From: Candidatus Omnitrophota bacterium
GTDB taxonomy: Bacteria > Omnitrophota > Gorgyraeia > Duberdicusellales > 4484-171
Direction: 5' to 3'
Length of the DNA: 64,000 nt
Assembly (NCBI GenBank): GCA_041652815.1
Contig: JBAZGN010000002.1
Location: forward strand, 174,261 to 238,260
Shown: in pieces, positions 24 through 62,115 of the stretch
Numbering within the stretch: the first letter of the stretch is position 1
How the letters are laid out: each line of letters begins with the position of its first letter
Notes under the pieces: generated by a model
Seen by the model: the letters and a program-made list of their open reading frames with translations, nothing else
Told to the model about the DNA's origin: nothing
The model's database searches: none
Translations under genes and position numbers: made by a program

Positions 24-92
24 CGAATTTACCCCGCCCTTTCTTACCTATGAATATTTTATTTTAAGGTATGAAAGGGCGGGGTTCAATTC
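24..92. repeat. Family C hairpin element, copy 1 (CCCCGCCCTTTC ... GAAAGGGCGGGG)
   Basis: 12-bp GC-rich stem with an AT-rich structured loop. Upstream of PilZ gene 1. Confidence 0.8.
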
Positions 93-157
93 CGACACAC
101 AAGTTATGTTCGCCTACGGCTGCCATAACTTGTGTCATCATTGAACGGAGGTGCGTT

Positions 158-469
158 ATGAATGAGGATGTTTACGGTTATAGGCGCGCGTATCAAAGGT
201 TTATGTGTTTTTTAAAAGGCACGTGTGAGTCTTCCGGTGGCAAATCGCAAGAGATATCTTGTAATGATATAAGCTATAAAGGCGCGGGTGTAATTACAGC
301 GCAGCCCTTGGCAATTAACAGCAATCTGAAGATGCAGCTTTCTAATCCTAAAATCGGGCCCATAGAAGTTGAGGGAAAAGTTTGCTGGTGCAACAATGTT
401 TATGGAAAGTGGCGCGCAGGAGTTTCGTTTAACAAAATTTTGCCTTTCAGCCTCGAGAAAATAGTATAA
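158..469 (+). CDS. PilZ-domain protein (c-di-GMP receptor-like), about 103 aa
   Basis: RxxxR-like (YRRAYQRF) and DISxKGxG motifs typical of PilZ. Start moved to the internal ATG at 158, which has a GGAG RBS, because ORF 71..469 begins inside a palindromic repeat. Confidence 0.5.
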   Translation: MNEDVYGYRRAYQRFMCFLKGTCESSGGKSQEISCNDISYKGAGVITAQPLAINSNLKMQLSNPKIGPIEVEGKVCWCNNVYGKWRAGVSFNKILPFSLEKIV

Positions 470-504
470 TATTTACAGGCTAAAAAGTAAAAGGAGGATT
501 TATC

Positions 505-816
505 ATGGGTAAACGGGCTTTCAACGAGAAAAGGTTATTTGACAGGACTCTTTGTTCAATGCCCGGCAGCTATGTATTGAAAGATATATCTTCCGGCACC
601 TTTGTTTGTAAAGATATAAGCCCGAAAGGAATCGGCATACAAACAACGCAGCCTCTGCCAGTAGATACTAAAGTGAAGATAGAGATAACCACAAAGAAAA
701 AAGTTCCGCTTATCCTGGAAGGAAAAGTGCGTTGGTCCAGAAAAGAGGGTGACGGCTACAGGGTAGGCATTGAATTTAACGAACCATTGTTTATATTGTT
801 AAGTATGCTTGTATAA
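505..816 (+). CDS. PilZ-domain protein, tandem paralogue
   Basis: EKRLFDR and KDISPKGIGI motifs. AAGGAGG RBS upstream. Confidence 0.5.
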   Translation: MGKRAFNEKRLFDRTLCSMPGSYVLKDISSGTFVCKDISPKGIGIQTTQPLPVDTKVKIEITTKKKVPLILEGKVRWSRKEGDGYRVGIEFNEPLFILLSMLV

Positions 817-869
817 ATTACAAGGCTTTCCGGTTATGTTTGTAAAATAAGTTTTTTCTGCCTCCCCTT

Positions 870-2501
870 ATGTATTTTTATCATCATTTTCGCAATATAT
901 GTTTTATTCTTGTTGCTTCGATTTCTTTCTTTAACCTGCCCGCACAAGCCCAAAGTAATTCTGGGCGTAATCCTTCCTTTGGCGATAAAATAATAATCGG
1001 CTCCGGTGCTGAGGCAAGCAATCTTATACCTATGCTTGCGTCAGATAGCGCTTCCCACGAAGTAAGCGGATTTATTTTTAATGGCCTAGTTAAGTACGAT
1101 AAAGACCTTACCTTAATAGGAGACTTAGCAGAGAGCTGGGAAATAAGCAAAGATGGTTTAGAAATAACTTTTCATCTTAAAAAAGGAATAAAATGGCACG
1201 ATGGCGTTGAGTTTACCGCAGATGATGTTTTGTTTGGATACAAAACCATTATTGACGAAAAAACGCCAAGTGCTTATAAAGAGGATTTCCTTCAAGTAAA
1301 GATTGCTGAAGTGGTGGATAAATATACTTTCAAAGTAACCTATGATAAGCCGTTTGCGCCGGCTCTTGCCAGCTGGGGAAGCCTTGTGGTTTTGCCTAAA
1401 CATATTTTAGAAAAAGAGGATATAACCAAAACCAGCTTTTCCAGAAACCCCGTAGGAACCGGGCCGTTTAAATTTAAAGAGTGGGTTCCCGGACAAAAAG
1501 TAATACTTACCGCAAATCCTGATTATTTTGAGGGAAGGCCTTACCTGGATGGCGTTACAATTCGGATTATACCTGACCCTACCACTATGTTTTTGGAACT
1601 TAAAACGCAAGGCCTTGATTGGATTGGGCTTACACCTTTACAGTATAAAAAACAAACCGAGGATAAATTCTTCAACGAAAATTATAAAAAATTCAAATAT
1701 CCTTCTTTTGCCTATACATATCTTGGGTTTAACCTAAAGCATCCATGGTTTTCTGAAAAAAAAGTGCGCCAGGCAATAGCGTATGCTTTGGATAAGGAAG
1801 AAATTATAAAAGGAGTGCTCTTGGGCATGGGCAGTATTTCCACCGGCCCTTATGTGCCGGATACTTGGCCGTATAACCCAAATGTAAAAAAATATGAATA
1901 TAATCCGCAAAAAGCCAAAGAGCTGCTTGCTGAGGCAGGTTGGAGCGATAGCGACAATGACGGAATTTTAGATAAAGATGGAAAGCCGTTTGAGTTTACA
2001 ATACTTACCAATATGGGTAATACCGCGAGGATTAAAACCGCAACAATAATACAATACAGGTTAAGTAAGGTCGGCATAAAAGTTAATATCCGAAGCCTTG
2101 AATGGTCGGCTTTTATCAACTGGTTTATCGATAAAAAACGTTTTGAGGCGGTAATCTTAGGCTGGAGTATAAGCCTTGACCCTGACCAATATGATATCTG
2201 GCATTCCACAAAGACAAAAGAAAAAGAGTTAAATTTTGTAAGCTTCGCAAATCCTGAGGTTGATAAATTGTTGGAGCGAGGAAGAAGAACATTCGATATT
2301 GAAAAAAGAAAACAAGCTTACTTTAGGATTCAGGAAATTATTGCTGAAGAGCTGCCGTATATTTTTCTATACGTGCCTGATTCTTTGCCGATTGTAAGTT
2401 CAAGATTTCAGGGAATCGAACCCGCACCAATAGGAATCGGGTATAATATAGAGAAGTGGTACGTGCCGAAGCGGTTACAAAAATATCGTATGCAAGAATA
2501 A
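870..2501 (+). CDS. ABC peptide-transporter substrate-binding protein (family 5, OppA/DppA-like)
   Basis: 543 aa with a signal peptide and family-5 SBP sequence features. Heads a 5-gene opp/dpp-like operon. Confidence 0.85.
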   Translation: MYFYHHFRNICFILVASISFFNLPAQAQSNSGRNPSFGDKIIIGSGAEASNLIPMLASDSASHEVSGFIFNGLVKYDKDLTLIGDLAESWEISKDGLEITFHLKKGIKWHDGVEFTADDVLFGYKTIIDEKTPSAYKEDFLQVKIAEVVDKYTFKVTYDKPFAPALASWGSLVVLPKHILEKEDITKTSFSRNPVGTGPFKFKEWVPGQKVILTANPDYFEGRPYLDGVTIRIIPDPTTMFLELKTQGLDWIGLTPLQYKKQTEDKFFNENYKKFKYPSFAYTYLGFNLKHPWFSEKKVRQAIAYALDKEEIIKGVLLGMGSISTGPYVPDTWPYNPNVKKYEYNPQKAKELLAEAGWSDSDNDGILDKDGKPFEFTILTNMGNTARIKTATIIQYRLSKVGIKVNIRSLEWSAFINWFIDKKRFEAVILGWSISLDPDQYDIWHSTKTKEKELNFVSFANPEVDKLLERGRRTFDIEKRKQAYFRIQEIIAEELPYIFLYVPDSLPIVSSRFQGIEPAPIGIGYNIEKWYVPKRLQKYRMQE

Positions 2502-2506
2502 GTTTA

Positions 2507-2613
2507 TAGTTACGAATGTTATGAAAGTTACGCAGGTTACGAAGGTTACAATAAAACACGCGATTCAAGGGTAACTTTCGTAACCCCCGTAACATCCGTA
2601 ACCTTCGTAACCT
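2507..2613. repeat. Family A inverted-repeat element, copy 1 (tandem GTTACGnAG 9-mers and complementary arm), between oppA and oppB
   Basis: gttacgaatgttatgaaagttacgcaggttacgaaggttac...gtaactttcgtaacccccgtaacatccgtaaccttcgtaacc. Confidence 0.85.
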
Positions 2614-2636
2614 AAAATTGGACAGTTGCAGTTACA

Positions 2637-3611: not shown

Positions 3612-3695
3612 TATTGCAGATGCTTGATACTAGATACTCGATGCCCGTAGGAATAAATTAACGAGCATCTAGCATCTAGAATCGAGGATCATTAA
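3612..3695. repeat. Family E element, copy 1 (GATACTC/GATGCTC heptamer arms), between oppB and oppC
   Basis: tgcttgatactagatactcgatgcccgtag...cgagcatctagcatctagaatcgaggatc. Confidence 0.75.
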
Positions 3696-4531: not shown

Positions 4532-4535
4532 TAAA

Positions 4536-4608
4536 GCTATCAGCCATCAGCTTTCAGCTATCAGTCAAAATATTAAAAGCTGAAGACTGACGACTGAAGG
4601 CTGATAGC
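4536..4608. repeat. Family D element, copy 1 (CAGCNAT heptamer arms), between oppC and oppD
   Basis: gctatcagccatcagctttcagctatcagtc...gctgaagactgacgactgaaggctgatagc. Confidence 0.8.
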
Positions 4609-4618
4609 TAATAAATAT

Positions 4619-5584: not shown

Positions 5585-5603
5585 TCCCCTATTGATTAAT
5601 TTC

Positions 5604-5712
5604 AGGTTACGAACGTTACGAAGGTTACGCAGGTTACGAAGGTTACCATAAATCACGAGGTTTTTAATGTAACCTCCGTAACTTTCGTAACTTCCCGTAA
5701 CCTTCGTAACCT
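5604..5712. repeat. Family A element, copy 2, between oppD and oppF
   Basis: Near-identical arms to copy 1. Confidence 0.85.
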
Positions 5713-5744
5713 AAATATATGATTTGTGTTTGGGTGTATAAAAT

Positions 5745-6769: not shown

Positions 6770-7741
6770 ATGAATCTTCAAAAAGGGGAGGTAAAAATGA
6801 AGATTGATGTGAAAAAAATTATATATTCAACGGCGATATTCGTGTTTCTGTCTTGCGCAAACACTAACGTTTTTGCGCAAAGCCCAACTCAAACCGGCCA
6901 GGTTAAAGTCAGCGGCCCTAAAAAAACAATTGCAGTTGCGCGCTTCGAAAACAGTTCCGGAATTAATTCGTATATAGCAATTGGCGATGATTTTGCTGCT
7001 CAACTTAGCGACGCTCTTATACAAAGTGGAGAGTTCACTGTACTAAGCCGTAAAGACTTAGGGGCCGTGCTTACGGAGCAGGACCTTGCGGATAGCGGCC
7101 GCATGTCTAAATCTCTTTCAGCGCAAAAAGGAAAGATTATCCCGGCGCAAATCCTTATAACCGGAAACATCACTGAATTTGAAGAGAACACTCAAGGCGG
7201 CGGCCAGGGTTTAAGCATCCACGGTATAACTATTGGCGGCGCAAAATCTGACGCACATGTTGCAGTGATTGTGCAAATTATAGATTCAACTACCGGAGAA
7301 ATCTTAGATTCGCAAAGAGTAGAGGGCTTAGCAGACGCCTCTGCTTTTACTATAGGCTATAGCGGTTCTTTTAGTTTAGGCAGTTCCAGTTTTAAAAAGA
7401 CGCCTCTCGGTAAAGCTGTGCAAATTGCAATAGACAGGGCAGTAGTCTATATCTCCGATAATCTTAGTAAATTTCCTTGGCAAGGCAGGGTGGTTACAAT
7501 TAAAGATGGATTAGTCTATGTAAATGCCGGTTCTGACGCAGGCATCGTACCAGGCGAGACTTTTATTGTGTGCAGAAAAGGCGAAAGCTTGATAGATCCG
7601 GAAACCGGTATGGATTTAGGCACAGAAAAAACAAAAATAGGCGATATCATAATATCCGAAGTGCAGCCTAAGTTCTCGAAAGCAAAAATATTAAGTAATA
7701 CCGACCAGATTAGAGTATCGGATTTAGTTATAAAACAGTAA
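6770..7741 (+). CDS. CsgG/HfaB-family lipoprotein (curli-type secretion channel homologue) with a C-terminal extension
   Basis: Signal peptide. Blocks align by eye to E. coli CsgG: TIAVARFENSSG; ILITGNITEFEENTQGGG..ITIGGA; IDSTTGEIL. Confidence 0.6.
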   Translation: MNLQKGEVKMKIDVKKIIYSTAIFVFLSCANTNVFAQSPTQTGQVKVSGPKKTIAVARFENSSGINSYIAIGDDFAAQLSDALIQSGEFTVLSRKDLGAVLTEQDLADSGRMSKSLSAQKGKIIPAQILITGNITEFEENTQGGGQGLSIHGITIGGAKSDAHVAVIVQIIDSTTGEILDSQRVEGLADASAFTIGYSGSFSLGSSSFKKTPLGKAVQIAIDRAVVYISDNLSKFPWQGRVVTIKDGLVYVNAGSDAGIVPGETFIVCRKGESLIDPETGMDLGTEKTKIGDIIISEVQPKFSKAKILSNTDQIRVSDLVIKQ

Positions 7742-7947
7742 ACGCAGATTAGCACAGATTTGTAAACGAATGATTACAGATAATATTCGTCAAACGGTTA
7801 CGGTTGCGCTGCTCGTTTCGTCTTACGGTTACGTTTTACGTATGACGCAACCGATACGAGCCGCGTAACCGATAGACGCAAGACGATACGCTAAATCTGC
7901 GATTGTCTGTTTTGTAATCTGTGATCATCTGTGTGTAAGAGAGGAGG
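7742..7947. repeat. Composite element: family F arms (CACAGAT ... ATCTGTG) enclosing a nested family G palindrome (CGGTTACGG.../...CCGTAACCG). 3' end is TAA plus GGAGG
   Basis: Outer arms at 7742-7790 and 7894-7947. Inner palindrome at about 7795-7880. Confidence 0.7.
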
Positions 7948-8138: not shown

Positions 8139-8222
8139 AAACAGACCACAGATCAGAATCGATACTCGATGCTCGATGATAGATGCTAGCTAGTATCGAG
8201 TATCCGGTATCTAGTATCAGTC
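8139..8222. repeat. Family E element, copy 2, upstream of ABC-F
   Basis: cagaatcgatactcgatgctcgatgatagatgctagctagtatcgagtatccggtatctagtatcag. Confidence 0.75.
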
Positions 8223-8227
8223 TAATT

Positions 8228-10150
8228 ATGATTGCTCTACACGGCCTTACAAAAAGCTACGGCAAGCGGGATTTATTTAAAGATGCCTCTATAACTATAA
8301 ACAGAGGGGAAAAAATTGCCTTTATCGGCCCTAATGGTGCTGGAAAATCTACGCTTTTTCATATTATACTTGGGGCAAGCGAGGCAACTTCCGGTTCAAT
8401 CCAGTTCAATAAAAATATCCGTATCGGATATCTGCCTCAAGAGTCAAGTTTTCATTCTGAGCGCACAGTATTACAGGAAATAGTTGAGGGGGATTGTGAG
8501 ATAGCGCGGCTTAAAAAAGAAAAAGAAGCGCTTGAGGAAAATAATGAAACTGCAACTAAACATTACGGCGATATCGTGCACCGGCTTGAAGCGCTCGGAT
8601 TTTTTGAGCTTGAATATAAAGGTAAAATCGTATTAAGCGGGCTTGGTTTTAAAGAAAGAGATTTTAACCGCCCCATAAAAGAGCTAAGCGGCGGATGGCA
8701 GATGAGAGTTTTGCTTGGTAAACTTTTGGTCTGCCATTACGATTGCCTGCTTTTGGATGAACCTACAAACTACCTTGACTTAAATGCCGCGCTTTGGTTT
8801 AAGGATTATCTTACAAACTATAAAGGCACATTTGTGATGATTTCTCACGATAAAGCTTTTTTAAATGAAGTCACTGGTCACTCGCTTATTTTAGAAAATG
8901 GTAAAATTGCAAAAATAAAAGGTAACTATGAACAATACCGTAAAATTTTAGATGAACAACGCAGCCACTTAGTAAAACAGGCTAAAGAGCAGGAACGCGT
9001 CCGCGAGCAATACCAGCGTTTCATCGACCGTTTTCACGCCCAGCCTAACAAAGCTTCCCAGGTGCGGGCAAAGAAAAAAGTCCTCGAAAAAATGGAACTT
9101 GTCGTTGTGCCGCAAGACCGCCGCGAAAGCATAAGAGGTTTTCATTTCCCGCCTACCAGGCCAAGCGGCCACCGCGTCCTTACGCTTACGAATATTTCCA
9201 AATCTTACGGCGATATACAGGTCTATAAAAATATCGATTTTGAAATCGTAAAAGGCGAAAAAGCGGTTTTGGCAGGCGAAAACGGCGCAGGCAAATCCAC
9301 ACTTCTTAAAATCCTTGCCGGCGTAATCGATATTAATGAAGGTACCCAGACTGTCGGGCACAATGTCACAATCGGTTATTTTTCGCAAACGCGTATGGAT
9401 GTTTTAAACGCTGACAGCACTGTTTTGGAAGAGGCCTGCTACAGCGCTAAAGAAGGCGTAACCGCAGAGGCTGTGCGTACAATTCTCGGCGCTTTTTTAT
9501 TTAAGGGAGATGATGTAGAAAAAAAAGTAAAAGTGCTTTCCGGCGGTGAAAAAAGCCGGCTGATACTTGCAAAACTACTGATAAATCCGCCTAACCTACT
9601 TCTGCTTGATGAGCCGACTACACATCTTGATGTTGACGCGGTTGAGGCACTTATTAAAGCATTAACAGAATATGAAGGAACAATTGCATTTATCAGCCAT
9701 GATATTTATTTTGTAAAATCAGTTGCCAACAACGTTTTTGAAGTGAAAGACGGAAATATTACGAAATTCCCGGGAAATTTCGAATATTATCTTCATAAAA
9801 AAGAACAAGATAGAAAACAGCCATCAGCCATCAGCCATCAGCCATCAGATTTAGGAAGCACGGAAAAAGGGCGCAGGATGTGGAAACAAGAGGAAAAGAA
9901 AGAAAAAGAGTTGACTGAGGAAGAGATTAAGAAGCATAATGAGGTGATTTCGAATAAAATAAAAAAATTACGCAAAAAGAAAGAAAAACTCGAGCTTGAA
10001 CGCTACGCAAAAGCGCGCGTATTGGAAAACCCTCGTCACGGAGAAGATCTTATCCGCTATTATCAGGAGATAGTTGAAGGGATGGATAAAGAAATTGCCG
10101 CAATTGAAGGAGAAATCGGCAGGTGGAAAGAAAAATTTATAAATACATAG
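8228..10150 (+). CDS. ABC-F family ATPase (two ABC cassettes plus a C-terminal coiled-coil; Uup/EttA-like)
   Basis: Two Walker A motifs (GPNGAGKST, GENGAGKST) and two LSGG signatures. Start moved to the internal ATG because the ORF N-terminus lies inside repeat E2. Confidence 0.8.
   Translation: MIALHGLTKSYGKRDLFKDASITINRGEKIAFIGPNGAGKSTLFHIILGASEATSGSIQFNKNIRIGYLPQESSFHSERTVLQEIVEGDCEIARLKKEKEALEENNETATKHYGDIVHRLEALGFFELEYKGKIVLSGLGFKERDFNRPIKELSGGWQMRVLLGKLLVCHYDCLLLDEPTNYLDLNAALWFKDYLTNYKGTFVMISHDKAFLNEVTGHSLILENGKIAKIKGNYEQYRKILDEQRSHLVKQAKEQERVREQYQRFIDRFHAQPNKASQVRAKKKVLEKMELVVVPQDRRESIRGFHFPPTRPSGHRVLTLTNISKSYGDIQVYKNIDFEIVKGEKAVLAGENGAGKSTLLKILAGVIDINEGTQTVGHNVTIGYFSQTRMDVLNADSTVLEEACYSAKEGVTAEAVRTILGAFLFKGDDVEKKVKVLSGGEKSRLILAKLLINPPNLLLLDEPTTHLDVDAVEALIKALTEYEGTIAFISHDIYFVKSVANNVFEVKDGNITKFPGNFEYYLHKKEQDRKQPSAISHQPSDLGSTEKGRRMWKQEEKKEKELTEEEIKKHNEVISNKIKKLRKKKEKLELERYAKARVLENPRHGEDLIRYYQEIVEGMDKEIAAIEGEIGRWKEKFINT
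9818..9848 (+). repeat. In-frame heptamer microsatellite (CAGCCAT x about 4) inside the ABC-F coding sequence
   Basis: cagccatcagccatcagccatcagccatcag encodes PSAISHQPSD. Same unit as the family D arms. Confidence 0.8.
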
Positions 10151-10208
10151 TTTAGATAGCTGTTGTAATATTTTTAGCAACGGTAACGGCCAGGGCAATA
10201 TCGATGAG

Positions 10209-10352
10209 AATAAATAACCAAGATACAAGAAACAATAACCAAACAATAAACAATATTCAAATTCCAATAACCAAACAAAACTCAATCTTCCCGTTTGGTC
10301 ATTGGTCATTGGATATTGGAATTTGTTTGTATCTTGTATCTTGGTTATTGGT
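10209..10352. repeat. Family B inverted-repeat element, copy 1 (AATAACCAAGATACAAG...CTTGTATCTTGGTTATTGG)
   Basis: About 145 bp imperfect palindrome built from 7-mer units. Confidence 0.8.
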
Positions 10353-10399
10353 TATTTAATTGATATGTCAAACATAACTGTAACCTATGAAAGAATAGC

Positions 10400-20244: not shown

Positions 20245-20322
20245 CACCGCAAAAACGCAAAAATCCGCAAAGTCGCAAAAAAATCTTTTGCGTTTTTGCG
20301 TCTTCTTTGCGCCTTTGCGGTG
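20245..20322. terminator. Long imperfect palindrome of CGCAAA units between convergent cstA and wzx (likely bidirectional terminator)
   Basis: caccgcaaaaacgcaaaaatccgcaaagtcgcaaaaaaatcttttgcgtttttgcgtcttctttgcgcctttgcggtg. Confidence 0.55.
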
Positions 20323-27461: not shown

Positions 27462-27705
27462 AAAGTCTCATTTGCCTACCTCGCCTTATTGAAAAAGTAG
27501 TTGCTTTATTCCATTTTTTTATTATAATATGCTTTCGTAAAAAGTTTACCTGCCTGCCGACAGCCCAACAGGCTAAAAGCCTGGTAGACAGGCGGGGATT
27601 TTTAGGCTGCTAACTGGAGCCCCTCTTGGGGCGACGTCCCGAACCGCCGTTCACCACGGGCGTAGCCTGTGGTTATTTAGCAACAGGATAGCAACCCCCG
27701 GTAGA

Positions 27706-27790
27706 GATGACCCAAAGGGTCATCCTGAAGCCCGAAGGGCTGAAGGATCATAAGATCCTTCGTCGCTTCGTTCCTCAGGATGAGATGGTT
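27706..27790. repeat. Family H palindromic module (GAAGCCCGAAGGGCTGAAGGATC...GATCCTTCGTCGCTTCGTTCCTCAGGATGA), copy 1
   Basis: Shared almost verbatim with 62003-62115. Confidence 0.75.
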
Positions 27791-27852
27791 GTTTTTCAAC
27801 CACCTCACTTAATTCCAGTAAAAAACCAGCTCTAACGGGAAAAATATTGGTT

Positions 27853-27914
27853 ACAGATGAAAATATCTGTGATCATCTGTGTCTGCCATCTGTGATTATC
27901 TGTGTGTAAAGGAG
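27853..27914. repeat. Family F element immediately upstream of fusA, ending ...ATCTGTGTGTAAAGGAG
   Basis: acagatgaaaatatctgtgatcatctgtgtctgccatctgtgattatctgtgtgtaaaggag. Confidence 0.7.
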
Positions 27915-27921
27915 TATAAAA

Positions 27922-33296: not shown

Positions 33297-33311
33297 AAAA
33301 GGAGGGCATAT

Positions 33312-33964: not shown

Positions 33965-33976
33965 CTAAAAAGCACA

Positions 33977-34755: not shown

Positions 34756-34982
34756 CTCCTTCGCCCTTCGGTAAGCAAAACGCCGGTTGTGCTTCGGAGA
34801 ATGAACTTCCGTAATTTTCTTAAATGAGCCACGTCATTTATTTTGAATAGGTTCATTTTTCTTGCCTTATTTCAAACCAGTTAGCAACAATCAAACAATT
34901 TCTTTTAAAATATCAAAATTATTAGTATAATAAATGAGGCAGCTTAATTTTCTATGCCTCTGGCATAGAAAATTAACGTAGC

Positions 34983-35050
34983 CGAATTTACCCCGCCCTT
35001 TCATACCTTGAATAAGTTATTCATGGGTAAGAAAGGGCGGGGTTTAATTC
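34983..35050. repeat. Family C hairpin element, copy 2, upstream of the NYN gene
   Basis: gaatttaccccgccctttcataccttgaataagttattcatgggtaagaaagggcggggtttaattc. Confidence 0.8.
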
Positions 35051-35118
35051 GCACTAGTATTTTTTCTTCGCCACTTTGGCTCGAAAAAATACTGTGCTCA
35101 TTAAAAAAGGAGTACCAA

Positions 35119-35670: not shown

Positions 35671-35674
35671 CGCG

Positions 35675-35900
35675 AATAAACACGAATACATAGAAGCGGA
35701 TCCGCGCCTGCCTCGCCAAAGCTTCAGCAAGGCGAGGATATTTACGCAGCCCCGTTACCTTATATAAATATATTAAGGTTCGGGGCGTCCCGCACCTTAA
35801 TAATTATATATAGGAAACGGGACGGATAGACGCAAGCCGATTACCGTGCGTACATCCGCGTTTAGCTCCGCGGTAATCCGCTTCTATAAATACACGAGGC
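35675..35900. repeat. Large multi-hairpin palindromic block
   Basis: Outer arms tacatagaagcggat ... atccgcttctataaatac. Inner ccgttacc..ggtaatccg and aggttcggggcgtcccgcacctt hairpins. Confidence 0.6.
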
Positions 35901-35907
35901 TAATTAC

Positions 35908-39191: not shown

Positions 39192-39194
39192 TTT

Positions 39195-39380
39195 ATTGAT
39201 TTGACCTATTCGACAGGCTCAGGGTCAATCCTGACCCTGAGTAAGCTTCAGGATTTTTGGTCCGAAGCGCATCGAACGGATTGATTTTAACTCCATAGAA
39301 TAAGTGAGTCAAACGATTTATTGATGAACAGATAATTTACTGCTGCCTTAAGGCAGCAGTAAATTATAGCGAAGCGTCTG
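39195..39380. repeat. Multi-hairpin block with CCTTAAGG-loop hairpin (ttactgctgccttaaggcagcagtaa) and ctcagggtcaatcctgaccctgag
   Basis: Two perfect hairpins read directly. Confidence 0.6.
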
Positions 39381-39448
39381 TGAATTAACCCCGCCCCTTC
39401 ACGCTTTGAATAAGTTATTCATAGGTAAGAAAGGGCGGGGTTAATTTG
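39381..39448. repeat. Family C hairpin element, copy 3
   Basis: Same loop ttgaataagttattcat as copy 2. Confidence 0.8.
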
Positions 39449-39532
39449 GCTATGCAATCCAGCACTCAGAAAACTGAGAGCTGGATTGCTGCCTCATTAA
39501 CTTTCTGGTATAATTAAAAAATCTGTATATTT

Positions 39533-43396: not shown

Positions 43397-43577
43397 ATAC
43401 TTGCACAGATGGCCACAGATTGTAAATCACAGATGGTCGCAGATGAGAAATTACAAGTACCAAATTCCAAACCTAAAGAATTTCGGACACTGGAATTTGG
43501 TACTTGGTGTTTAGAATTTCATAATATCTGTGATCATCCGTTTTGTAATCTGTGGTCATCTGTGTAACAAACAGGAG
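43396..43577. repeat. Composite family F element with a nested ACCAAATTCC...GGAATTTGGT palindrome, ending ...CATCTGTGTAACAAACAGGAG upstream of the DUF1211 gene
   Basis: cacagatggccacagattgtaaatcacagatggtcgcagatg ... atatctgtgatcatccgttttgtaatctgtggtcatctgtgtaa. Confidence 0.7.
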
Positions 43578-49024: not shown

Positions 49025-49030
49025 TATAGA

Positions 49031-49104
49031 AGGCAGATAACAGAAGTCAGATGACAGAGCGCAAATTTTTTCTGTCATCTGTTTTCTGACTTCTGTCGTT
49101 TGTC
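49031..49104. repeat. Family F-related palindrome (CAGATAACAGAAGTCAGATGACAGAG...CTGTCATCTGTTTTCTGACTTCTGTCG)
   Basis: Between HlyD and the first ABC ATPase. Confidence 0.6.
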
Positions 49105-49120: not shown

Positions 49121-49861
49121 ATGGTTACTATAAAAGTAGAAAATCTTACCAAAAAATTCGGGGCTTTAACTGCTCTTGATAAACTAAATCTTGAAGTGCA
49201 GGAAGGGGAAATTTTCGGTTTAGTCGGCCCTGACGGCGCAGGCAAAACGACAACGATGCGGTTATTAACAGGCATTTTGGATCCTACAGAAGGGCAAGCT
49301 TGGGTTTACAATAAGCATACGGTAAAAGAAGCGGAAAAATTAAAAGAGTATATAGCCTATATGTCTCAACGGTTTGGGCTTTATGAAGAGTTGAGCGTTA
49401 TGGAGAATATCAATTTTTACGCCGATGTTTATGGGGTCGCCAAAGAAAACCGCCATGAAGCTATTGAACGCTTACTTGGTTTTTCCGGATTACTGCCTTT
49501 CAAGCAGCGTTTTGCAGGCAAACTATCCGGAGGTATGAAGCAAAAATTAGGTTTAGCCTGCGCACTTATTCATACACCGCGCGTTCTTTTTTTGGATGAA
49601 CCTACAAACGGAGTGGATCCGGTGTCCCGAAGAGACTTTTGGAATATACTTTACGATTTACTTAAGGAAAAAGTCACAATATTCTGTTCTACTTGTTATC
49701 TTGACGAAGCTGAACGTTGTGCAAGAGTCGGCTTAATGCATAAGGGTAAACTGTTACGCTGCGATTCACCTGAGAGAATAAAAAAAGAGTGCAACGCTAA
49801 AACTCTCGAAGAAGCGTTTATTAAGATAATTAAAGAATATGAGAAAGAATCTGAAAAATAA
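49121..49861 (+). CDS. ABC transporter ATP-binding protein (YbhF-like, first cassette)
   Basis: Walker A GPDGAGKTT and LSGGMKQK. Upstream TTG start is rejected because it lies in a repeat. Confidence 0.8.
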   Translation: MVTIKVENLTKKFGALTALDKLNLEVQEGEIFGLVGPDGAGKTTTMRLLTGILDPTEGQAWVYNKHTVKEAEKLKEYIAYMSQRFGLYEELSVMENINFYADVYGVAKENRHEAIERLLGFSGLLPFKQRFAGKLSGGMKQKLGLACALIHTPRVLFLDEPTNGVDPVSRRDFWNILYDLLKEKVTIFCSTCYLDEAERCARVGLMHKGKLLRCDSPERIKKECNAKTLEEAFIKIIKEYEKESEK

Positions 49862-50003
49862 CCAAGCTCCAAGATACAATAACCAAACAATGACCAATAA
49901 TCAAATTCCAATAACCAAACGAAAAAGAACAAAACTGTTTGGTCATTGGTTATTGGATATTGGAATTTGTTTGTATCTTGTATCTTGGTTATTGGTTATT
50001 TAA
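49862..50003. repeat. Family B element, copy 3, between the two ABC ATPase genes
   Basis: ccaagatacaataaccaaac...ttggtcattggttattgg...cttgtatcttggttattggttatt. Confidence 0.8.
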
Positions 50004-50011
50004 AAACAATT

Positions 50012-53209: not shown

Positions 53210-53214
53210 TCGAT

Positions 53215-53420
53215 ATGCTAGATACCCCGGCCTTAAGGCCAGGGATGATGTGAATCGATTACTTTCCGGGATGCCTTTATACCGTGAAAATTTTGATGGA
53301 AAATTTTCACGGAGCATCCCGGAACCTATTGGCCGCCGGCCGGAGGATAGCGAGGGCGGGGCACAGGTAAATCACAGCTTTTAGTCCAGCAGACTGAAAG
53401 CCCGGTAGGTAGCCGCGGAG
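53215..53420. repeat. Multi-hairpin block (ccccggccttaaggccaggg; ccgggatgc...gcatcccgg)
   Basis: Shares the CCTTAAGG loop motif with 39195-39380. Confidence 0.55.
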
Positions 53421-53526
53421 GTTCATTTTATTCTTTAATACACTAAGAAAGCGGCAAAAAAATTGTATTTTTATTAAGCAGAGTTATAATAAGTGCCCCC
53501 AATAATGGTTATGATAAATATGGAAC

Positions 53527-54165
53527 GTGGTTGACCAAAATAAACTACCAGTGCAAGAGCCAATATTTTTTAACCAAATAAATGTTGATTTACCTTTAGA
53601 AAATATCTATAAGCGCCTTGGTTATAGAAGTGGCGCAACAATACTTTCTAAGCCGCAGAAAAAAGAAACAGAAAAAATAATTAATGACGCTTTACCGTTT
53701 ATAGAACTCCGCGGCGGCGCGGTAATTGAACCAGTTCAGAAAAAAAATGAAATAATATCCATAGGAGGTATTTCGATAGCCAGCAGGCTTTTATGCTCTT
53801 TACTCAAAGAAAGCGATGAAGTTCTTTTGTGCGCGGCAACAGCAGGAGAAAAAATAATAAAAGAAATAAAGGAATGCGGAAAAAGTGATTTAACACGTGC
53901 AGTCATATTTGATGCCGCAGCCAGTGAGATAGTGGACGCTTGTTTTGAATGGATAATAAATTATTATAACCGGCAATTGCAAAGGATAGATAAGCGCCTT
54001 ACGGATAAACGTATCTCCTGTGGGTTTGCTGATTTTGCAATAGAAAACCAGAAAAAAATTTATGATTTGCTTAAACTTAAAAAAATCGGCATAAACATTA
54101 CGCAGCAGTTCATGCTTATTCCGGAAAAGTCAGCGACTGCGGTGTTGGGGGTAATAAATATTTAG
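53527..54165 (+). CDS. Stand-alone methionine-synthase activation (AdoMet-binding) domain-like protein
   Basis: C-terminal FMLIPEKSATAVLGV aligns with the MetH activation-domain block FAMWPGASVSGW. Directly upstream of the MetH core. Confidence 0.5.
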   Translation: MVDQNKLPVQEPIFFNQINVDLPLENIYKRLGYRSGATILSKPQKKETEKIINDALPFIELRGGAVIEPVQKKNEIISIGGISIASRLLCSLLKESDEVLLCAATAGEKIIKEIKECGKSDLTRAVIFDAAASEIVDACFEWIINYYNRQLQRIDKRLTDKRISCGFADFAIENQKKIYDLLKLKKIGINITQQFMLIPEKSATAVLGVINI

Positions 54166-54271
54166 GTTACGAATGTTACGCAGGTTACGTAGGTTACGAA
54201 GGTTACAATAAACTTACGTGTTTTAAATGTAACTTCCGTAACTTTCGTAACACCCGTAACCTTCGTAACCT
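54165..54271. repeat. Family A element, copy 3, between metH-activation gene and metH core
   Basis: Near-identical arms to copies 1 and 2. Confidence 0.85.
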
Positions 54272-54302
54272 AACTCGATAGTTATGATACATATAAGAAT
54301 CT

Positions 54303-56729
54303 ATGAACGCTAAAGAAAAAATAAAGCGCCTTTTAAAAAAGCGAGTGGTTATCCTTGATGGAGCAATGGGTACACAGCTTCATAAGTATGGGATGCCGCA
54401 AGGAATACTACCTGAAATCTGGGCTTTAGAAAATCCTAGAATACTAAAACAGATTCACAGGCAATACCGGCAAGCCGGTTCGGATATTATTTACACTGCG
54501 ACGTTCGGCGCTAACCGGATTAAACTTGGGAACCAAAAAATAAAAAATGTAAAACAAATAAACAAAGATTTATGTTTATTGGCTAAAGAAGCTGCAGGAA
54601 AAAATTGCTTTGTTGCCGGTGACATTGGCCCCTTAGGTGTATTTATTGAGCCTTTTGGCGAACTTCCTTTTGAAGAAGCAGTTGATATTTTCAAAGAACA
54701 AGTGCGCTCTCAACTTTTAGCAGGAGTTGATTTATTCGTTATAGAAACAATGATGGATATACAGGAAGCCCGTGCAGCTCTTATTGCAGTAAGAGAGTTT
54801 TGCGATAAATTTACAATTGTTACGATGACATATGAGGCGAGCGGCCGAACCTTAAACGGAACAAGCCCGCAGGCAGCATTGATTACACTTCAAAGCTTAG
54901 GCGCAGATTGTGTTGGCGCGAATTGTTCAACGGGCCCGGTTGATATGCTTAAAATTGTCAAAAGCCTTAAACCATACGCAACAGTGCCGCTTGCAGTTAA
55001 ACCTAATGCCGGAATGCCTGAACTTGTTTTTGGGCAGGCTCATTTTAGTATGCAGCCACGGGATTTTGGTGTATTTGCGGAAAAATTCGCATCTTACGGC
55101 GTAAATATGTTAGGCGGTTGCTGCGGAACAACCCCAGAACATATACGTGAAGCTAAAATCAAGATAGGCAACAAAAAACCAATTGCGCCGCATAAAAAAC
55201 AATTGAGTGCTTTAAGCTCGGCAAGGAGCGCTTTGATTTTAGAAAAACAAAAAGATGTGTTAATCGTGGGGGAAAGTATAAACCCGACAGGAAAACCCGC
55301 CTTTCAGCAGGAATTAAAAAAAGGTAAAATGGCTTCGGTAGTAAGATTGGCAAATGAGCAAAAACAAAATGGCGCCAACCTGTTAGACGTAAACGTAAGC
55401 GTGCCGCAAGCCAATGAGGAAAAATTGATGATGGAGGCAATTTCCGTGCTTTCTAAGATTACGAATTTGCCTTTAGTGATTGATTCTCCAAATGTAAAAG
55501 TAATTGAAAGAGCGCTTAGGTTTTATCCCGGCCGCGCGCTTATAAATTCAATTTCAGAAGACCCCGTCAAGCTTAAGCCCCTGCTTAATTTAGCAAAAAA
55601 ATACGGCGCGATGTTTATAGTCTTGCCTGTAGCGGGACGCGCTATTCCTAAAAATATTGCCGAACGTAAAAATATAATAAAGAAAATCTTCAATGAAGCG
55701 AAAAAATCAGGTTTTTACAAAGAAGATTTGATTGTGGATTGTCTGGTGCTGACTGTTTCTTCGAAGCCGCAGGCAGCGCAGGATGTTTTAAAGACAATAT
55801 CCTGGTGCAAAAAAATTTTTAAAGCTAATACTATAATTGGCCTTTCAAACATTTCTTTTGGCCTGCCAAAAAGAGATATCGTAAATACAACTTTTCTAAA
55901 TATGGCAAAGGGCCGGGGGCTTTCTCTTGCCATAGCTAATCCTTTGCAAAAGAAAAATTTCATTGATTTAAGGGCAAAAGCGCTTTTGCTAAACAAAAAA
56001 AACGCAGCCGCCAACTTTATAAATTGTTATTCCGGAAAGGCAGACAGCGGAATCAAATACCGCAAACATAAAAAGTTTTCCCCGGAAGAAGAAATATATA
56101 AGGCAGTAATTGAAGGCAACAAGCAGGACATAGCTGTATTTATACGTAATATCTTGAAAGAAGGAAAAAAGCCATTGTCTATAATGCAGGATATTTTAAT
56201 ACCGGCCATCATTAAGGTTGGCGACCTTTTTGAGAAAAAAGAATATTTTCTTCCCCAGCTTATCGCCAGCGCCGAAGCTATGAAACTAGGCACGCAAGTG
56301 CTGCTTCCTTACATCAAAAGAAAAGGCGGAGAAAAGAAGAAAGCAATCGTTATACTTGCAACAGTTGAGGGAGACGTCCACGATATAGGTAAAAACATAG
56401 TTTCGCTTTTACTGGAAAACCACGGATTTAAAATAATTGATTTAGGAAAAGACGTTTCGGCGCAAAAAATAATTCAGGCCATAAAAGTACATAAACCGGA
56501 CATAGTCGGTTTATCTGCTTTAATGACAACCACAATGGTTAATATGAAAAAAGTAATAGAGTTGGCAAAAAGGGAAGGATTAAAGTGCGAATTTATGATT
56601 GGCGGAGCAGTGGTTACAAAGCATTTCGCCGATTCAATAGATGCTGCCTACGCAAAAGACGGAGTTAGTGCCGTGCGCGTTGCGCAAAACTTGTCGTCAA
56701 ACACCTATCTACCATCCGCAACCTCGTAG
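54303..56729 (+). CDS. metH: Cobalamin-dependent methionine synthase core (Hcy-, folate-, B12-binding domains; lacks activation domain)
   Basis: LDGAMGTQL (Hcy domain), pterin-binding region, and the DxHxxG B12 motif GDVHDIGKN. 808 aa. Confidence 0.85.
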   Translation: MNAKEKIKRLLKKRVVILDGAMGTQLHKYGMPQGILPEIWALENPRILKQIHRQYRQAGSDIIYTATFGANRIKLGNQKIKNVKQINKDLCLLAKEAAGKNCFVAGDIGPLGVFIEPFGELPFEEAVDIFKEQVRSQLLAGVDLFVIETMMDIQEARAALIAVREFCDKFTIVTMTYEASGRTLNGTSPQAALITLQSLGADCVGANCSTGPVDMLKIVKSLKPYATVPLAVKPNAGMPELVFGQAHFSMQPRDFGVFAEKFASYGVNMLGGCCGTTPEHIREAKIKIGNKKPIAPHKKQLSALSSARSALILEKQKDVLIVGESINPTGKPAFQQELKKGKMASVVRLANEQKQNGANLLDVNVSVPQANEEKLMMEAISVLSKITNLPLVIDSPNVKVIERALRFYPGRALINSISEDPVKLKPLLNLAKKYGAMFIVLPVAGRAIPKNIAERKNIIKKIFNEAKKSGFYKEDLIVDCLVLTVSSKPQAAQDVLKTISWCKKIFKANTIIGLSNISFGLPKRDIVNTTFLNMAKGRGLSLAIANPLQKKNFIDLRAKALLLNKKNAAANFINCYSGKADSGIKYRKHKKFSPEEEIYKAVIEGNKQDIAVFIRNILKEGKKPLSIMQDILIPAIIKVGDLFEKKEYFLPQLIASAEAMKLGTQVLLPYIKRKGGEKKKAIVILATVEGDVHDIGKNIVSLLLENHGFKIIDLGKDVSAQKIIQAIKVHKPDIVGLSALMTTTMVNMKKVIELAKREGLKCEFMIGGAVVTKHFADSIDAAYAKDGVSAVRVAQNLSSNTYLPSATS

Positions 56730-57447
56730 GTTGCGGATGGTAGATGTATAACTAATATGTTAATTACCGGAGAAGTATATCATACTTTAAATAGAAGTAT
56801 TGTTGATTTTAAAATATTCAACAACATTTCAGATTTTTCGCGGATGAGAGAAGTTCTCTGGTATTATCAATTTGAAAAACTCCCCATAAGTTTTAGCAAA
56901 TTTAACGAATTGGCGACCGACAAAGCAGTTTCTTTTCGAAACGAAATTTCTAGCGGAGTAGATAGCAAGCTTATTGAAATAATTGCTTGGTGCCTTATGC
57001 CTACGCATGTTCACTTAGTATTGAAACAATTAAAAGATAATGGGATTTCAAAATTCATGAGTAATATTCTTAACAGTTATAGCAGGTATTTTAATATTAA
57101 ACATAACAGGAAAGGTCCATTGTGGGAAGGCCGGTTCAAAAAAGTTCTGGTCAAAAGTGATGAACAGCTTTTACATCTGACAAGATATATTCATTTAAAT
57201 CCAGTTACCGCATCTTTGGTAAATAATCCAGAGGATTGGTTTGCTTCGTCTTATAAAGGGTATGTTGGTTTAGATTTAAATGAAAATAATTTATGTTGCT
57301 ACCATAACATTATTGATATTAAACCTGCAACATACAAAAAATTTGTAGAGGATAGGATTTCTTATCAAAGAGAACTTGAAAAAATAAAGCATTTGATTTC
57401 CGAGGAAGCGTAATTTAACCATCCGCAACCTCGTAGGTTGCGGATGG
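56712..57447 (+). mobile_element. REPtron-like unit: RAYT gene bracketed by two identical 29-nt perfect palindromes
   Basis: CCATCCGCAACCTCGTAGGTTGCGGATGG at about 56712-56740 and again at 57419-57447. Confidence 0.7.
56757..57413 (+). CDS. IS200/IS605-like Y1 (HUH) transposase, REP-associated tyrosine transposase (RAYT)-like
   Basis: EVYHTLNRS, HUH motif PTHVHLV and catalytic-Tyr region RYIHLNPV. Confidence 0.8.
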   Translation: MLITGEVYHTLNRSIVDFKIFNNISDFSRMREVLWYYQFEKLPISFSKFNELATDKAVSFRNEISSGVDSKLIEIIAWCLMPTHVHLVLKQLKDNGISKFMSNILNSYSRYFNIKHNRKGPLWEGRFKKVLVKSDEQLLHLTRYIHLNPVTASLVNNPEDWFASSYKGYVGLDLNENNLCCYHNIIDIKPATYKKFVEDRISYQRELEKIKHLISEEA

Positions 57448-57454
57448 TTAAAGA

Positions 57455-60528: not shown

Positions 60529-60568
60529 TAATCCTGCATCTACCGAGTTATTTTTAACGATAAAATTT

Positions 60569-61057
60569 ATGAGAAGTTTGATAGTTTTTTATTCCCATTA
60601 CGGTAATACCGCATTTGTTACTCATAAAGCGTGGAATGAATTAAGAAAGAAAGGCGAGTCTGACATTTTCGAAGTAGAATATGTCGGAGGTAAAAAGAAT
60701 ATAATTACACGTTTTTTCTACAGAATCTTTCCTTTCCTGGTTAAGATAGAACCCATTCCTGTAGATTTGAGCAATTATGATATTTTATTTCTTGGCGTAC
60801 CGGTTTTGGGGGCGCACCCTTCATCTGCCCTTTTAAAATATATAAAATCAATAATAAATGTAGATAGCAAAAGAATTATTTGTTCCTATGTATATGGGGT
60901 TGAATTAAGCGCAAAACATTGCGCAGTCCATATCTCAAAAATTTTAGAAAAAAAAGGCAATCCACTCATAATGAATATATTTATTCCCTGGAGTAACGTC
61001 CACAACGAATCCTTCTTAAATAAAACATTAATTGAACCAATAAATAAGTTAAGCTGA
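60569..61057 (+). CDS. Flavodoxin-like fold protein
   Basis: LIVFYSHYGNTAFV resembles the flavodoxin T/SxxGNT phosphate-binding loop. Confidence 0.4.
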   Translation: MRSLIVFYSHYGNTAFVTHKAWNELRKKGESDIFEVEYVGGKKNIITRFFYRIFPFLVKIEPIPVDLSNYDILFLGVPVLGAHPSSALLKYIKSIINVDSKRIICSYVYGVELSAKHCAVHISKILEKKGNPLIMNIFIPWSNVHNESFLNKTLIEPINKLS

Positions 61058-61065
61058 CTCTGCTT

Positions 61066-61548
61066 ATGAAACGCAAACTTCCGCATAAAAAATATATGCA
61101 GCTTGCAATTTGCGAAGCAAGGAAGAATCTCAGTAAGGTTTGCGGTGGCCCCTTTGGCGCTTGTATAGCAAAGGGGAATAAAGTCATTGCCATAGCCCGC
61201 AACACAGTTTTAAAGAATGATGCCAGCTGTCATGCCGAGATAAATGCCATACGCCTTGCATCGAAAAAACTTAGAACCCATGATCTTTCCGGATGCCGGA
61301 TTTATTCAACTACCGAGCCGTGCCCGATGTGTTTTGCTGCATGCCATTGGGCGAGGATTGGTTCAATAATTTATGGCAACAATATTAGCGATGCAAAGAA
61401 AATAGGTTTCAACGAGCTTTCTATTTCTAACGTTTCAATGAAAAAAATCGGTAAAGCCAAAATCAAAGTTATCCGCGGCGTTTTGCGTAACGATTGTAAC
61501 CGCTTATTTCGCGAGTGGTCAGCGCTTCCTAACAAGCAGTTATACTAA
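61066..61548 (+). CDS. guaD: Guanine deaminase, GuaD type (CDA fold)
   Basis: GGPFGACIAKG...CHAEINAIR...YSTTEPCPMCFAACHWARI closely parallels B. subtilis GuaD blocks (GGPFGAVIVKDG...HAEVTAIR...YTSCEPCPMCLGAIYWAR). Confidence 0.7.
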   Translation: MKRKLPHKKYMQLAICEARKNLSKVCGGPFGACIAKGNKVIAIARNTVLKNDASCHAEINAIRLASKKLRTHDLSGCRIYSTTEPCPMCFAACHWARIGSIIYGNNISDAKKIGFNELSISNVSMKKIGKAKIKVIRGVLRNDCNRLFREWSALPNKQLY

Positions 61549-61561
61549 TTTTTAGTATTTT

Positions 61562-61903
61562 ATGGCGAGAGAGAACTTTAAGAAAAACATAATTGTGAAG
61601 GTTTTGAATACGGCAAACTCAATAGCTTACGAGAAAAATTCTATTGTCAGTAATACAATAGTTAAAAAGAAAAGCGGGACAATTACACTGTTTTCCTTCG
61701 ATTGCGGGCAGGGGTTAAGCGAACATACTGCCCCGTTTGATGCCTTAATTTATATTATTGAAGGCCGTGCCAGGATTTATATTGCCAAGAAGCCTTACAA
61801 GGTTTCAAAGGACAAGATGATTATTTTACCCGCCAACAAACCCCACGCAGTAAAAGCCATCACAAAATTTAAAATGATGCTGGTAATGATTAAATCCAAA
61901 TAG
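61562..61903 (+). CDS. Cupin-domain protein
   Basis: 113 aa. Cupin motif region G..SEH....FDALIYIIEGRARI. Confidence 0.5.
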   Translation: MARENFKKNIIVKVLNTANSIAYEKNSIVSNTIVKKKSGTITLFSFDCGQGLSEHTAPFDALIYIIEGRARIYIAKKPYKVSKDKMIILPANKPHAVKAITKFKMMLVMIKSK

Positions 61904-61987
61904 GCGGAATTTCCAAGCCAAAATCTGTATCTTGCTTCTTTGTGCCCTGATTTAATTTGACATATATAGGTATATTATATATAATCT

Positions 61988-62115
61988 GAGAGGTCGACAG
62001 GTTGTCGACCTCTCATCCCGAAGCCCGAAGGGCTGAAGGATCTAATTAGATCCTTCGTCGCTTCGCTCCTCAGGATGACCCCCTTGCTAATAGAAGAACT
62101 TACCGAGGGGTCATA
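61988..62115. repeat. Family H module, copy 2, plus adjacent hairpin TGAGAGGTCGACAGGTTGTCGACCTCTCA, upstream of lysS
   Basis: gaagcccgaagggctgaaggatctaattagatccttcgtcgcttcgctcctcaggatga. Confidence 0.75.

Follow-up and report, generated by a model that had tools for sequence, protein, structure and literature searches.

Tandem-unit hairpins between the genes of a Candidatus Omnitrophota bacterium and their possible relation to rRNA intervening sequences

Tandem-unit hairpins and their described relatives

The intervening sequences (IVS) of bacterial rRNA and the short tandemly repeated repetitive (STRR) sequences of cyanobacteria are the described types of which we regard the elements reported here as a variant. 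These elements are hairpins found between the genes of a 64,000-nucleotide stretch (the window) of contig JBAZGN010000002.1 from a Candidatus Omnitrophota bacterium, and in each of them units of 7, 8 or 9 nt are repeated in tandem along the 5' arm, while the inverse array makes up the 3' arm. The IVS of the Coxiella 23S rRNA has an inverted-repeat stem with three tandem GACAGAT units and a GACAGAA unit before the open reading frame (ORF) of the S23p protein; the copy number of the heptamer varies among strains, RNase III cuts at the first repeat, and the IVS has been proposed to be a mobile element with an ORF serving mobility (PMC4990558). The protein family, 23S_rRNA_IVP, has no function assigned so far (PMC11270868). 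The window class resembles the IVS of Coxiella burnetii and Leptospira (PMC4990558, PMC11270868) in its inverted-repeat stem, in tandem heptamers of variable copy number in the ORF-side arm, and in a sporadic horizontal spread with ORF-less and decaying forms; full-length relatives of one window family, family A, also carry a PF05635 ORF in the loop, sense to the host transcript, and another, family F, shares the ACAGAT core of the Coxiella GACAGAT heptamer (PMC4990558). Unlike IVS, the window elements lie between protein-coding genes and not in a 23S or 16S rRNA helix, they occur in many copies of at least seven unit families in one genome, and all window copies are ORF-less. Excision by RNase III has been shown for the rRNA IVS, and we infer it for the Omnitrophota elements.

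STRR heptamers have been known since 1990, and TTGGTCA, which we take to be the STRR2 unit, is present in family B of the window. STRR heptamers form hairpins within cyanobacterial operons, including hupS-hupL, where their function is not established (PMC2670836, PMC2408588), although transcript stabilisation or translational coupling has been proposed (PMC2670836). Shared with the window are intergenic tandem 7-nt units that also occur inside operons and pair with inverse arrays, and many unit types per genome (PMC2670836, PMC2408588). The original prediction, made from the sequence of the window alone, considered this architecture unusual; it is preceded by the STRR hairpins (PMC2670836) and by the GACAGAT stem of the Coxiella IVS (PMC4990558). 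Unlike STRR, the Omnitrophota elements occur outside filamentous or heterocystous cyanobacteria, include 8- and 9-nt units, and are discrete dispersed copies with conserved loops.

Correia (NEMIS) elements of Neisseria are inverted repeats of about 100-150 bp with flanking TA, co-transcribed with their neighbours, and their RNA hairpins are cut by RNase III with altered mRNA stability as the result. No cargo-bearing relatives of these elements are known, and their arms are not known to form tandem arrays, unlike those of the window elements; the sequences are unrelated. The repetitive extragenic palindromes (REP) and REPINs moved by REP-associated tyrosine transposases (RAYTs) are likewise extragenic hairpin palindromes with several families per genome (PMC3116915, PMC2817692, PMC3733652), but a REP is a single 20-40-nt palindrome with a GTAG or CGTC head, whereas the window arms consist of 3-9 short units in elements of 70-200 nt, and the RAYT-flanking hairpin of the window is not its abundant repeat. 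The TAACTGA repeats of Beggiatoaceae, cyanobacteria and Bacteroidetes are abundant intergenic heptamer arrays immediately upstream of start codons with a patchy phylogeny, as here; in contrast to the window they consist of a single unit and lack hairpin architecture, nearly all being direct, with one inverted case in 170 (PMC4679880).

Gaps in the window were mapped by Tandem Repeats Finder and by direct reading of each gap. Tandem-unit hairpins are present in 17 of the 49 intergenic gaps of at least 35 nt and represent at least seven unit families. Other strong hairpins (family C, the two H copies, multi-hairpin blocks and a REP pair) fill 10 additional gaps, so that any strongly structured element is found in 27/49 gaps of at least 35 nt and in 23/34 of at least 80 nt. 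About half of the intergenic gaps thus carry hairpin elements; the statement that most gaps are occupied holds with all hairpin classes counted and fails for tandem-unit hairpins alone. Within a unit, a core of 4-6 nt is conserved and 1-3 positions vary, and the predicted stem is therefore a series of short helices separated by small internal loops. A detector requiring at least three units plus at least three inverse units within 200 nt was used, since pairing of Tandem Repeats Finder consensus units recovers only half of the elements; it found nine elements in the window, against zero in every one of 10 Markov-2 shuffles. The two-armed tandem-unit hairpins all have much stronger folds than their shuffles (z -4 to -13.5), the one-armed F copy 2 having a z of about +0.5. 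The window has a GC content of 36-44%, a positive GC skew and genes nearly all on the plus strand. Rfam (gathering thresholds) and tRNA scans of it gave no match and no rRNA. Its closest genomes are Candidatus Omnitrophota metagenome-assembled genomes (MAGs), three of which have OppC proteins of 96%, 88% and 71% identity (the 96% one being L002). An independently assembled ENA contig (L001) matches 6.9 kb of the window including three elements, and the repeats are therefore no assembly artefacts.

Family A and the genes carried between its arms

Family A (GGTTACGnA) is a conserved element of about 112 nt; copy 1 consists of five GTTACGnnn units, a 21-nt loop and five nnnCGTAAC units. Its copies have five units per arm, identical non-complementary linkers (e.g. 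CAG opposite TTCC) and a similar loop, and this sharing of imperfect linkers and loop indicates that they were copied from a master sequence and are not convergent. A 21-base family A pattern, scanned against a metagenome collection, returned 96 stretches, mostly GYGGY coding repeats; about 25 complete family A hairpins lie in different gene contexts, mainly in two metagenomes, which shows that the motifs also occur outside this region. The downstream ORF is read in the same sense as the element in 17/17 cases (p = 1.5e-5), the upstream ORF in 21/24, and the element usually begins within a few nt of the upstream stop codon; in copy 3 the TAG stop of the preceding gene falls within the terminal palindrome. 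Family A copies of metagenome Ga0172381 (L091, L094, L109, L110, L125, L156) lead directly into a near-identical TATAATACAAGGAGGT and then the start codon of unrelated genes, and the element may thus bring along a ribosome-binding site or -10 box; the window copies do not show this. The motif TATAATACAAGGAGG after some family A copies, a candidate Shine-Dalgarno or -10 motif, occurs in one metagenome population only and not in the window.

Two family A relatives (L115, L119) have arms about 450 nt apart, and an ORF of 131-135 amino acids fills the loop exactly, its start codon following the last left unit and its stop codon lying in the first right unit. Both PF05635 23S_rRNA_IVP (E 1.4e-16) and TIGR02436 'four helix bundle protein' include this ORF; among solved structures the five-chain entry 2gsc (XCC0516) is nearest to it. 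In the same metagenome, loops that lack the ORF still have AGTAAAA at the 5' junction and TTTTnAGTGTAAC at the 3' junction, for which internal deletion of the ORF would be the simplest reading. The PF05635/TIGR02436 family is abundant in Omnitrophota. Eight further Omnitrophota S23p genes all have GTTAC-core arrays upstream and GTAAC-core arrays downstream; the array-flanked members include P0037, P0009, P0076, P0054, P0059 and P0071, and they lie inside operons such as leuB-asd, purE-larC and fabG-acpP. The layout of P0009 is exceptional in that the gene sits between two complete hairpins. Family A relatives with a PF05635 ORF come from other genomes than that of the window (L115, L119, L178-183, L192, L193, L195, L197).

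The association between inverse arrays and these genes is not limited to the GTTAC core. A distant S23p paralogue between gatA and gatB is flanked by GTGTAAT x4 and ATTACAC x4, which suggests that the unit tracks the protein paralogue. A GxxExxY gene (TIGR04256, E 1.8e-43) in a Schekmanbacteria MAG (L008, 13780-14250) lies between CACGAAG x3 and CTTCGTG x3, which adds GxxExxY to S23p as a second family of small proteins in this cassette layout. When the flanks of 2495 small ORFs in all loci were tested, 16 passed, seven of them S23p or GxxExxY; the pass rate was 7/10 for these two families and 9/2485 for other small ORFs (p = 1e-14). No further S23p or GxxExxY gene beyond those named was found in about 1.9 Mb of loci, and the tandem-unit architecture was found across 80 loci (1.23 Mb, many phyla) only in the window's own species, L002, one Schekmanbacteria MAG and one Desantisbacteria MAG.

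An S23p paralogue, searched by tblastn against a plasmid collection, gave matches chiefly in the taxa classically known for STRR (Nostoc, Calothrix, Anabaena), and also in Riemerella. Among 14 plasmid-borne four-helix-bundle genes, eight have two-sided inverse heptamer arrays, four partial ones, one direct arrays and one none. Hosts of two-sided arrays are Nostoc, Calothrix, Anabaena, Geminocystis, Picosynechococcus and Riemerella, with examples such as GTAGGGA x8 / TCCCTAC x5, AGGGAAC x4 / GTTCCCT x7 and GGTTCAA / TTGAACC; several of the genes sit in cas or nrd operons. The direct arrays are on a Pseudanabaena plasmid (L209; AAAGCTA x15 upstream and AAAGCCA x10 downstream). Four-helix-bundle genes of L208, L209 and L212 are located inside CRISPR-cas operons (cas6-cas4, cas10-cmr3). 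The flanks in cyanobacteria suggest a connection between STRR and S23p; our literature search, in which Elhai et al. 2008 was not covered, turned up no link between STRR-type arrays in general and S23p genes.

We propose, with somewhat better than even confidence, that the window hairpins are ORF-less miniatures of IVS-like selfish cassettes that are co-transcribed with their host genes and probably cut in the stem by RNase III. A full-length cassette would consist of n tandem units of 7-12 nt, a small gene (PF05635 S23p, once GxxExxY) and n inverse units. Such cassettes would insert in sense orientation into transcribed non-coding spacers, which here would be the few nt that separate one gene's stop codon from the following ribosome-binding site within operons and in other bacteria the ends of rRNA helices. 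A hairpin of about 70-200 nt would remain once the gene is lost by internal deletion, and its unit number would then drift through slippage while small hairpins nest in its loop. In the transcript the two arms are predicted to form one long stem, its 4-8-bp helices interrupted by small internal loops; RNase III, by analogy with the rRNA IVS, would most likely cut this stem, excising the loop and splitting the operon RNA into separately stable pieces. The data establish the anatomy of the elements, their insertion polymorphism among relatives, the dispersal of a conserved master sequence, the bias to sense orientation and the association of arms with S23p genes. The link to IVS-like cassettes comes from the sequences of family A alone, and we infer from the shared architecture that families B-I may have the same origin, as we do RNase III processing and anything concerning a mobilising enzyme. 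The families had been called unrelated, which is right for their unit sequences, whereas the shared layout and the cargo gene of family A suggest one class of element.

A broader and more tentative reading, which we hold to be possible but doubtful, would unite STRR hairpins, rRNA IVS and the hairpins of Omnitrophota, Schekmanbacteria and Desantisbacteria in one widespread superfamily of mobile cassettes. The arms would be sites recognised by the carried protein, either the S23p four-helix bundle, an Avd-like pentamer, or a PD-(D/E)XK-like GxxExxY protein, the unit would co-evolve with the paralogue, and an uncharacterised mobility would target transcribed spacers. If this is true, STRR heptamers, S23p-bearing rRNA IVS and the dense hairpin families of uncultured phyla, so far treated apart and without an agreed function, share one explanation, and two very abundant families, 'four helix bundle protein' and 'GxxExxY protein', gain a testable role; this possible unification is the most interesting lead of the analysis.

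Insertion polymorphism and alternative origins

Orthologous gaps in relatives are empty or hold another family. In L003 the entire opp operon is collinear with that of the window and every gap is an element-free 13-46 nt. The oppA/oppB gap holds family A in the window, a different hairpin in L002 and 13 nt in L003; the oppB/oppC gap holds family E in the window, family A in L002 and 19 empty nt in L003. The oppC/oppD gap of L002 contains the orthologous family D element, into whose loop an additional small GC hairpin is nested, and that of L003 is empty (14 nt). The oppD and oppF genes, separated by A copy 2 in the window, overlap (ATGA) in L002 without an element. L204, which is syntenic with the window at 46-63 kb, lacks four window elements (47871-48145, F copy 4, the block at 53210 and A copy 3) and its genes abut or overlap, abutting at the F copy 4 site and overlapping at that of A copy 3. 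By these comparisons the window elements are recent insertions and behave as mobile or quickly turned-over DNA, in keeping with what had been predicted (OppC identity of the relatives 96% and 88%, RAYT identity 74%). The opp, ABC and metH contexts of the elements inside operons, also predicted, were confirmed by Pfam.

Presence/absence polymorphism, nesting, small size, multiple copies and terminal inverted repeats would also be expected of ordinary miniature transposable elements with inverted repeats (MITEs) of IS630/Tc1-mariner-like or other TA-duplicating transposons, each family having its own transposase elsewhere in the genome. The elements have the MITE features of terminal inverted repeats, a length below 300 bp, no coding content and multiple copies, and the limits of conservation in family A, T[TA]AG|GTTACG...CGTAAC|CTAA, would fit a TA on either side. 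This TA could be a target-site duplication or a mere extension of the palindrome, from which it is inseparable, and filled and empty sites have diverged too far for comparison, so no duplication could be demonstrated; the Pfam scan of 68 window ORFs contained no transposase except a RAYT-like gene, the sole longer relatives carry S23p and no known transposase, and strict sense orientation is unexpected for cut-and-paste MITEs. We consider such an origin very improbable. With no transposase-bearing parent found, the designation MITE, as originally applied, stands as an analogy and not as a classification.

The location of the elements inside operons, behind one stop codon and ahead of the following ribosome-binding site, always sense, would also suit RNA structures selected by the host as stabilisers, processing sites or coupling spacers. 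In this case they would have been made in place by slippage and template-switch 'palindrome correction', and the apparent dispersal would reflect favoured similar units. Heptamer arrays do arise in place: a CAGCCAT x4.4 array at 9818-9848, correctly reported as in-frame by the original prediction, lies in the hypervariable linker of an ABC-F protein and encodes QPSAISHQPS, and the orthologue in L002 (~7500-7600) has three other 7-nt arrays at the same linker position, so that array formation is possible in place even in coding DNA. Unit numbers differ between populations, as in the same S23p cassette of L178 (2950-3030) and L182 (2975-3030), whose left arms have three and two 27-nt modules, and a stabilisation or coupling role has been proposed for STRR hairpins (PMC2670836). 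One-sided changes in family A favour those that are G-U-compatible on the sense strand (10 versus 3, p = 0.046, a weak signal). On the other side, the linkers and loop of family A are shared across loci and metagenomes, indicating master copying instead of convergence; orthologous operons function without elements (L003, L204); different families occupy the same gap in close relatives; and compensatory changes are absent in family A. Nor are the elements terminator-like: a terminator function is not supported, as no plus-strand intrinsic terminator-like call fell on any element in 1-20000 and calls were at chance level (24 versus 20.3 +/- 4.4). A host-selected origin seems improbable to us. 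Covariation among family A copies, which had been suggested as a check, says nothing either way: the stems are invariant, the consensus fold having five helices of 5-8 bp and 29 pairs with zero compensatory changes.

The RAYT-like gene downstream of metH brings a third explanation, that the elements are REPIN-like and moved as single-stranded DNA hairpins by RAYTs, their units being iterated half-sites or cleavage sites and the S23p genes passengers. The gene encodes a Y1 tyrosine transposase-like protein and is flanked on both sides by an identical hairpin of the form CCATCCGCAACC-TCGT-AGGTTGCGGATGG with a 13-bp stem; homologues in L204, L206 and L207 are each bordered by hairpins of their own, which co-vary. 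Over about 10 nt the REP arm GGTTGCGGATGG is similar to the family A unit (GTTGCGGATG is exact in L115 and CGTAGGTT[AG]CG is common to both), and the strong orientation bias observed would be expected of single-stranded DNA insertion where genes follow replication direction. Against this, the similarity is short enough to be chance, the protein scores below the curated cut-off of NF047646 REP_Tyr_transpos (E 7.8e-20, 71 bits against 80), and the hairpin is present in only two copies in 64 kb. The gene looks vertically inherited, as the L204 orthologue (74% identical) lies at the same place after metH, and 20 kb of L204 are free of tandem-unit hairpins; at least seven unit families would require several RAYTs, and one is seen. 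We rate this explanation as unlikely, give the RAYT low weight as the driver of the tandem-unit families in view of the scarce REP and of L204, and treat RAYT and REP as an ordinary neighbouring unit, the RAYT being a minority candidate for the mobilising enzyme.

Several observations weigh against the IVS-like cassette origin that we favour. Searches of the window for S23p genes or remnants (tblastn, a subfamily HMM and a broad HMM on six-frame peptides) gave nothing below E = 1, ORF-bearing relatives were found for family A only and none for families B-I, and no mobility enzyme was identified for the tandem-unit elements. The direction of derivation is read from short shared junctions, and there could have been either ORF loss or ORF insertion into pre-existing hairpins. 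One-armed arrays in coding DNA and the direct arrays of L209 make array formation separable from the palindrome. At the RNA level, the family A stem has a 3x3 internal loop every 6 bp, so cleavage by RNase III is not assured; its lack of compensatory changes gives no sign of selection on the RNA, and folding energy favours neither strand consistently across the elements.

The elements add intergenic DNA to a genome that is otherwise compact, break into translationally coupled operons (opp and gatCAB are examples), cause mis-called start codons and probably reshape the processing of operon RNA; they are also usable as strain-level markers.

Catalogue of features and neighbouring genes

The features of the window are collected in Table 1. 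All positions listed in the original prediction hold what it described and several distinct dispersed families are confirmed, to which we add the CGCAAAAA and GTTTAGA families. Families A, B, D, E and F are built from tandem units as claimed, whereas C, H and the multi-hairpin blocks are another kind of hairpin, with no tandem units in their make-up, and are not to be pooled with the tandem-unit families. The two H copies are clearly homologous (alignment score 106 against a shuffle maximum of 21), but the relatives proposed for this family show no significant similarity to H. B copies 1 and 3 are 89% identical across 148 nt, and the right arm of copy 3 overlaps a mis-called TTG start codon.

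Table 1. Structured elements and the RAYT-like gene in the window (z, fold strength against shuffles; MFE, minimum free energy)
Feature	Position	Strand	Remarks
C copy 1	24..96	+	69-nt GC-stem palindrome; z -8.1
A copy 1	2506..2617	+	oppA/oppB gap; z -8.1
E copy 1	3612..3692	+	GATACTC/GATGCTC (GATRCTC); oppB/oppC gap; z -5.2
D copy 1	4533..4612	+	AGCTATC heptamers (family unit CAGCTAT); oppC/oppD gap; z -8.0
A copy 2	5602..5716	+	oppD/oppF gap; z -9.9
F copy 1	7740..7936	+	CACAGAT/ATCTGTG outer arms; z -6.5
E copy 2	8150..8225	+	5' of ABC-F gene; z -4.1
CAGCCAT x4.4 array	9818..9848	+	in ABC-F coding sequence; one arm, no hairpin
B copy 1	10205..10362	+	AATAACC/AAGATAC heptamers pair with TTGGTCA/TTGGTTA; z -10.8
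CGCAAAAA (8-nt unit) hairpin	20245..20320	+	between convergent genes; z -7.3
H copy 1	27690..27800	+	GAAGG/CCTTC-rich hairpin
F copy 2	27850..27916	+	one-armed, mainly right-arm ATCTGTG; 5' of fusA; no significant fold
F copy 5	30117..30192	+	AACAGAT AACAGAG GACAGAG; z -8.2; identical in L001
CTAAACA/GTTTAGA heptamer hairpin	31728..31850	+	two small GC hairpins nested in loop; z -10.5
B copy 2	33146..33300	+	more diverged; z -3.9
D copy 2	33975..34018	+	short; z -4.4
C copy 2	34982..35054	+	69-nt GC-stem palindrome; z -10.8
Multi-hairpin block	35671..35907	+	unclassified; MFE -0.35 kcal/mol per nt
Multi-hairpin block	39192..39379	+	unclassified; adjoins C copy 3
C copy 3	39380..39452	+	69-nt GC-stem palindrome; z -8.2
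F copy 3	43400..43570	+	B-like hairpin nested in loop (~43452-43512); z -13.5
F copy 4	49026..49100	+	GGCAGAT AACAGAA GTCAGAT GACAGAG; HlyD/ABC gap; z -7.6
B copy 3	49852..50005	+	between two ABC ATPase genes; z -11.1
Multi-hairpin block	53210..53430	+	unclassified; absent from syntenic L204
A copy 3	54163..54273	+	5' of metH; z -12
REP hairpin CTACCATCCGCAACC-TCGT-AGGTTGCGGATGGTAG	56709..56743	.	5' of RAYT gene; metH stop codon in loop
RAYT-like Y1 (IS200-like) tyrosine transposase gene	56757..57413	+	PF01797 E 6.7e-10
Second identical REP hairpin	57417..57450	.	3' of RAYT gene
H copy 2	61985..62110	+	small hairpins alongside

Nesting is frequent, as F copies 1 and 3 and the GTTTAGA element hold other hairpins in their loops; the arms of F copy 1 enclose an unrelated GC-richer hairpin (~7786-7893), and two metagenomic family A copies have small GC palindromes within one arm. 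Nested GC-rich palindromes such as GGCCAACAGG...CCTGTTGG and CCTGCCTGCCGGCAGGCAGG were seen in arms or loops at L094 (~3300-3330), L116 and L002 (2470-2500), and these small palindromes look like a second layer of tiny insertions. One-armed arrays with the inverse partner absent occur right after stop codons (CAGATAG x3.7 at 40508-40538 and GGTTAA x3.2 at 11629-11647).

The ORF at 53527-54165 had been labelled a metH activation gene; it has no Pfam match at E 1e-5, and neither has its L204 orthologue. The most structured gaps cluster with RRM-domain, NYN-domain and small-ORF genes (34370-34699, 23907-24557 on the minus strand, 35008-35670 and 34099-34260). Two RRM-domain RNA-binding proteins are present, one of them with a CGG-repeat Gly/Arg tail, and an unannotated small ORF of this cluster encodes a putative ribosomal protein S21, judged from its translation. 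A small protein matching phage Mu GemA (PF06252, E 3e-10) is encoded at 23290-23658, beside a GC-rich hairpin block.

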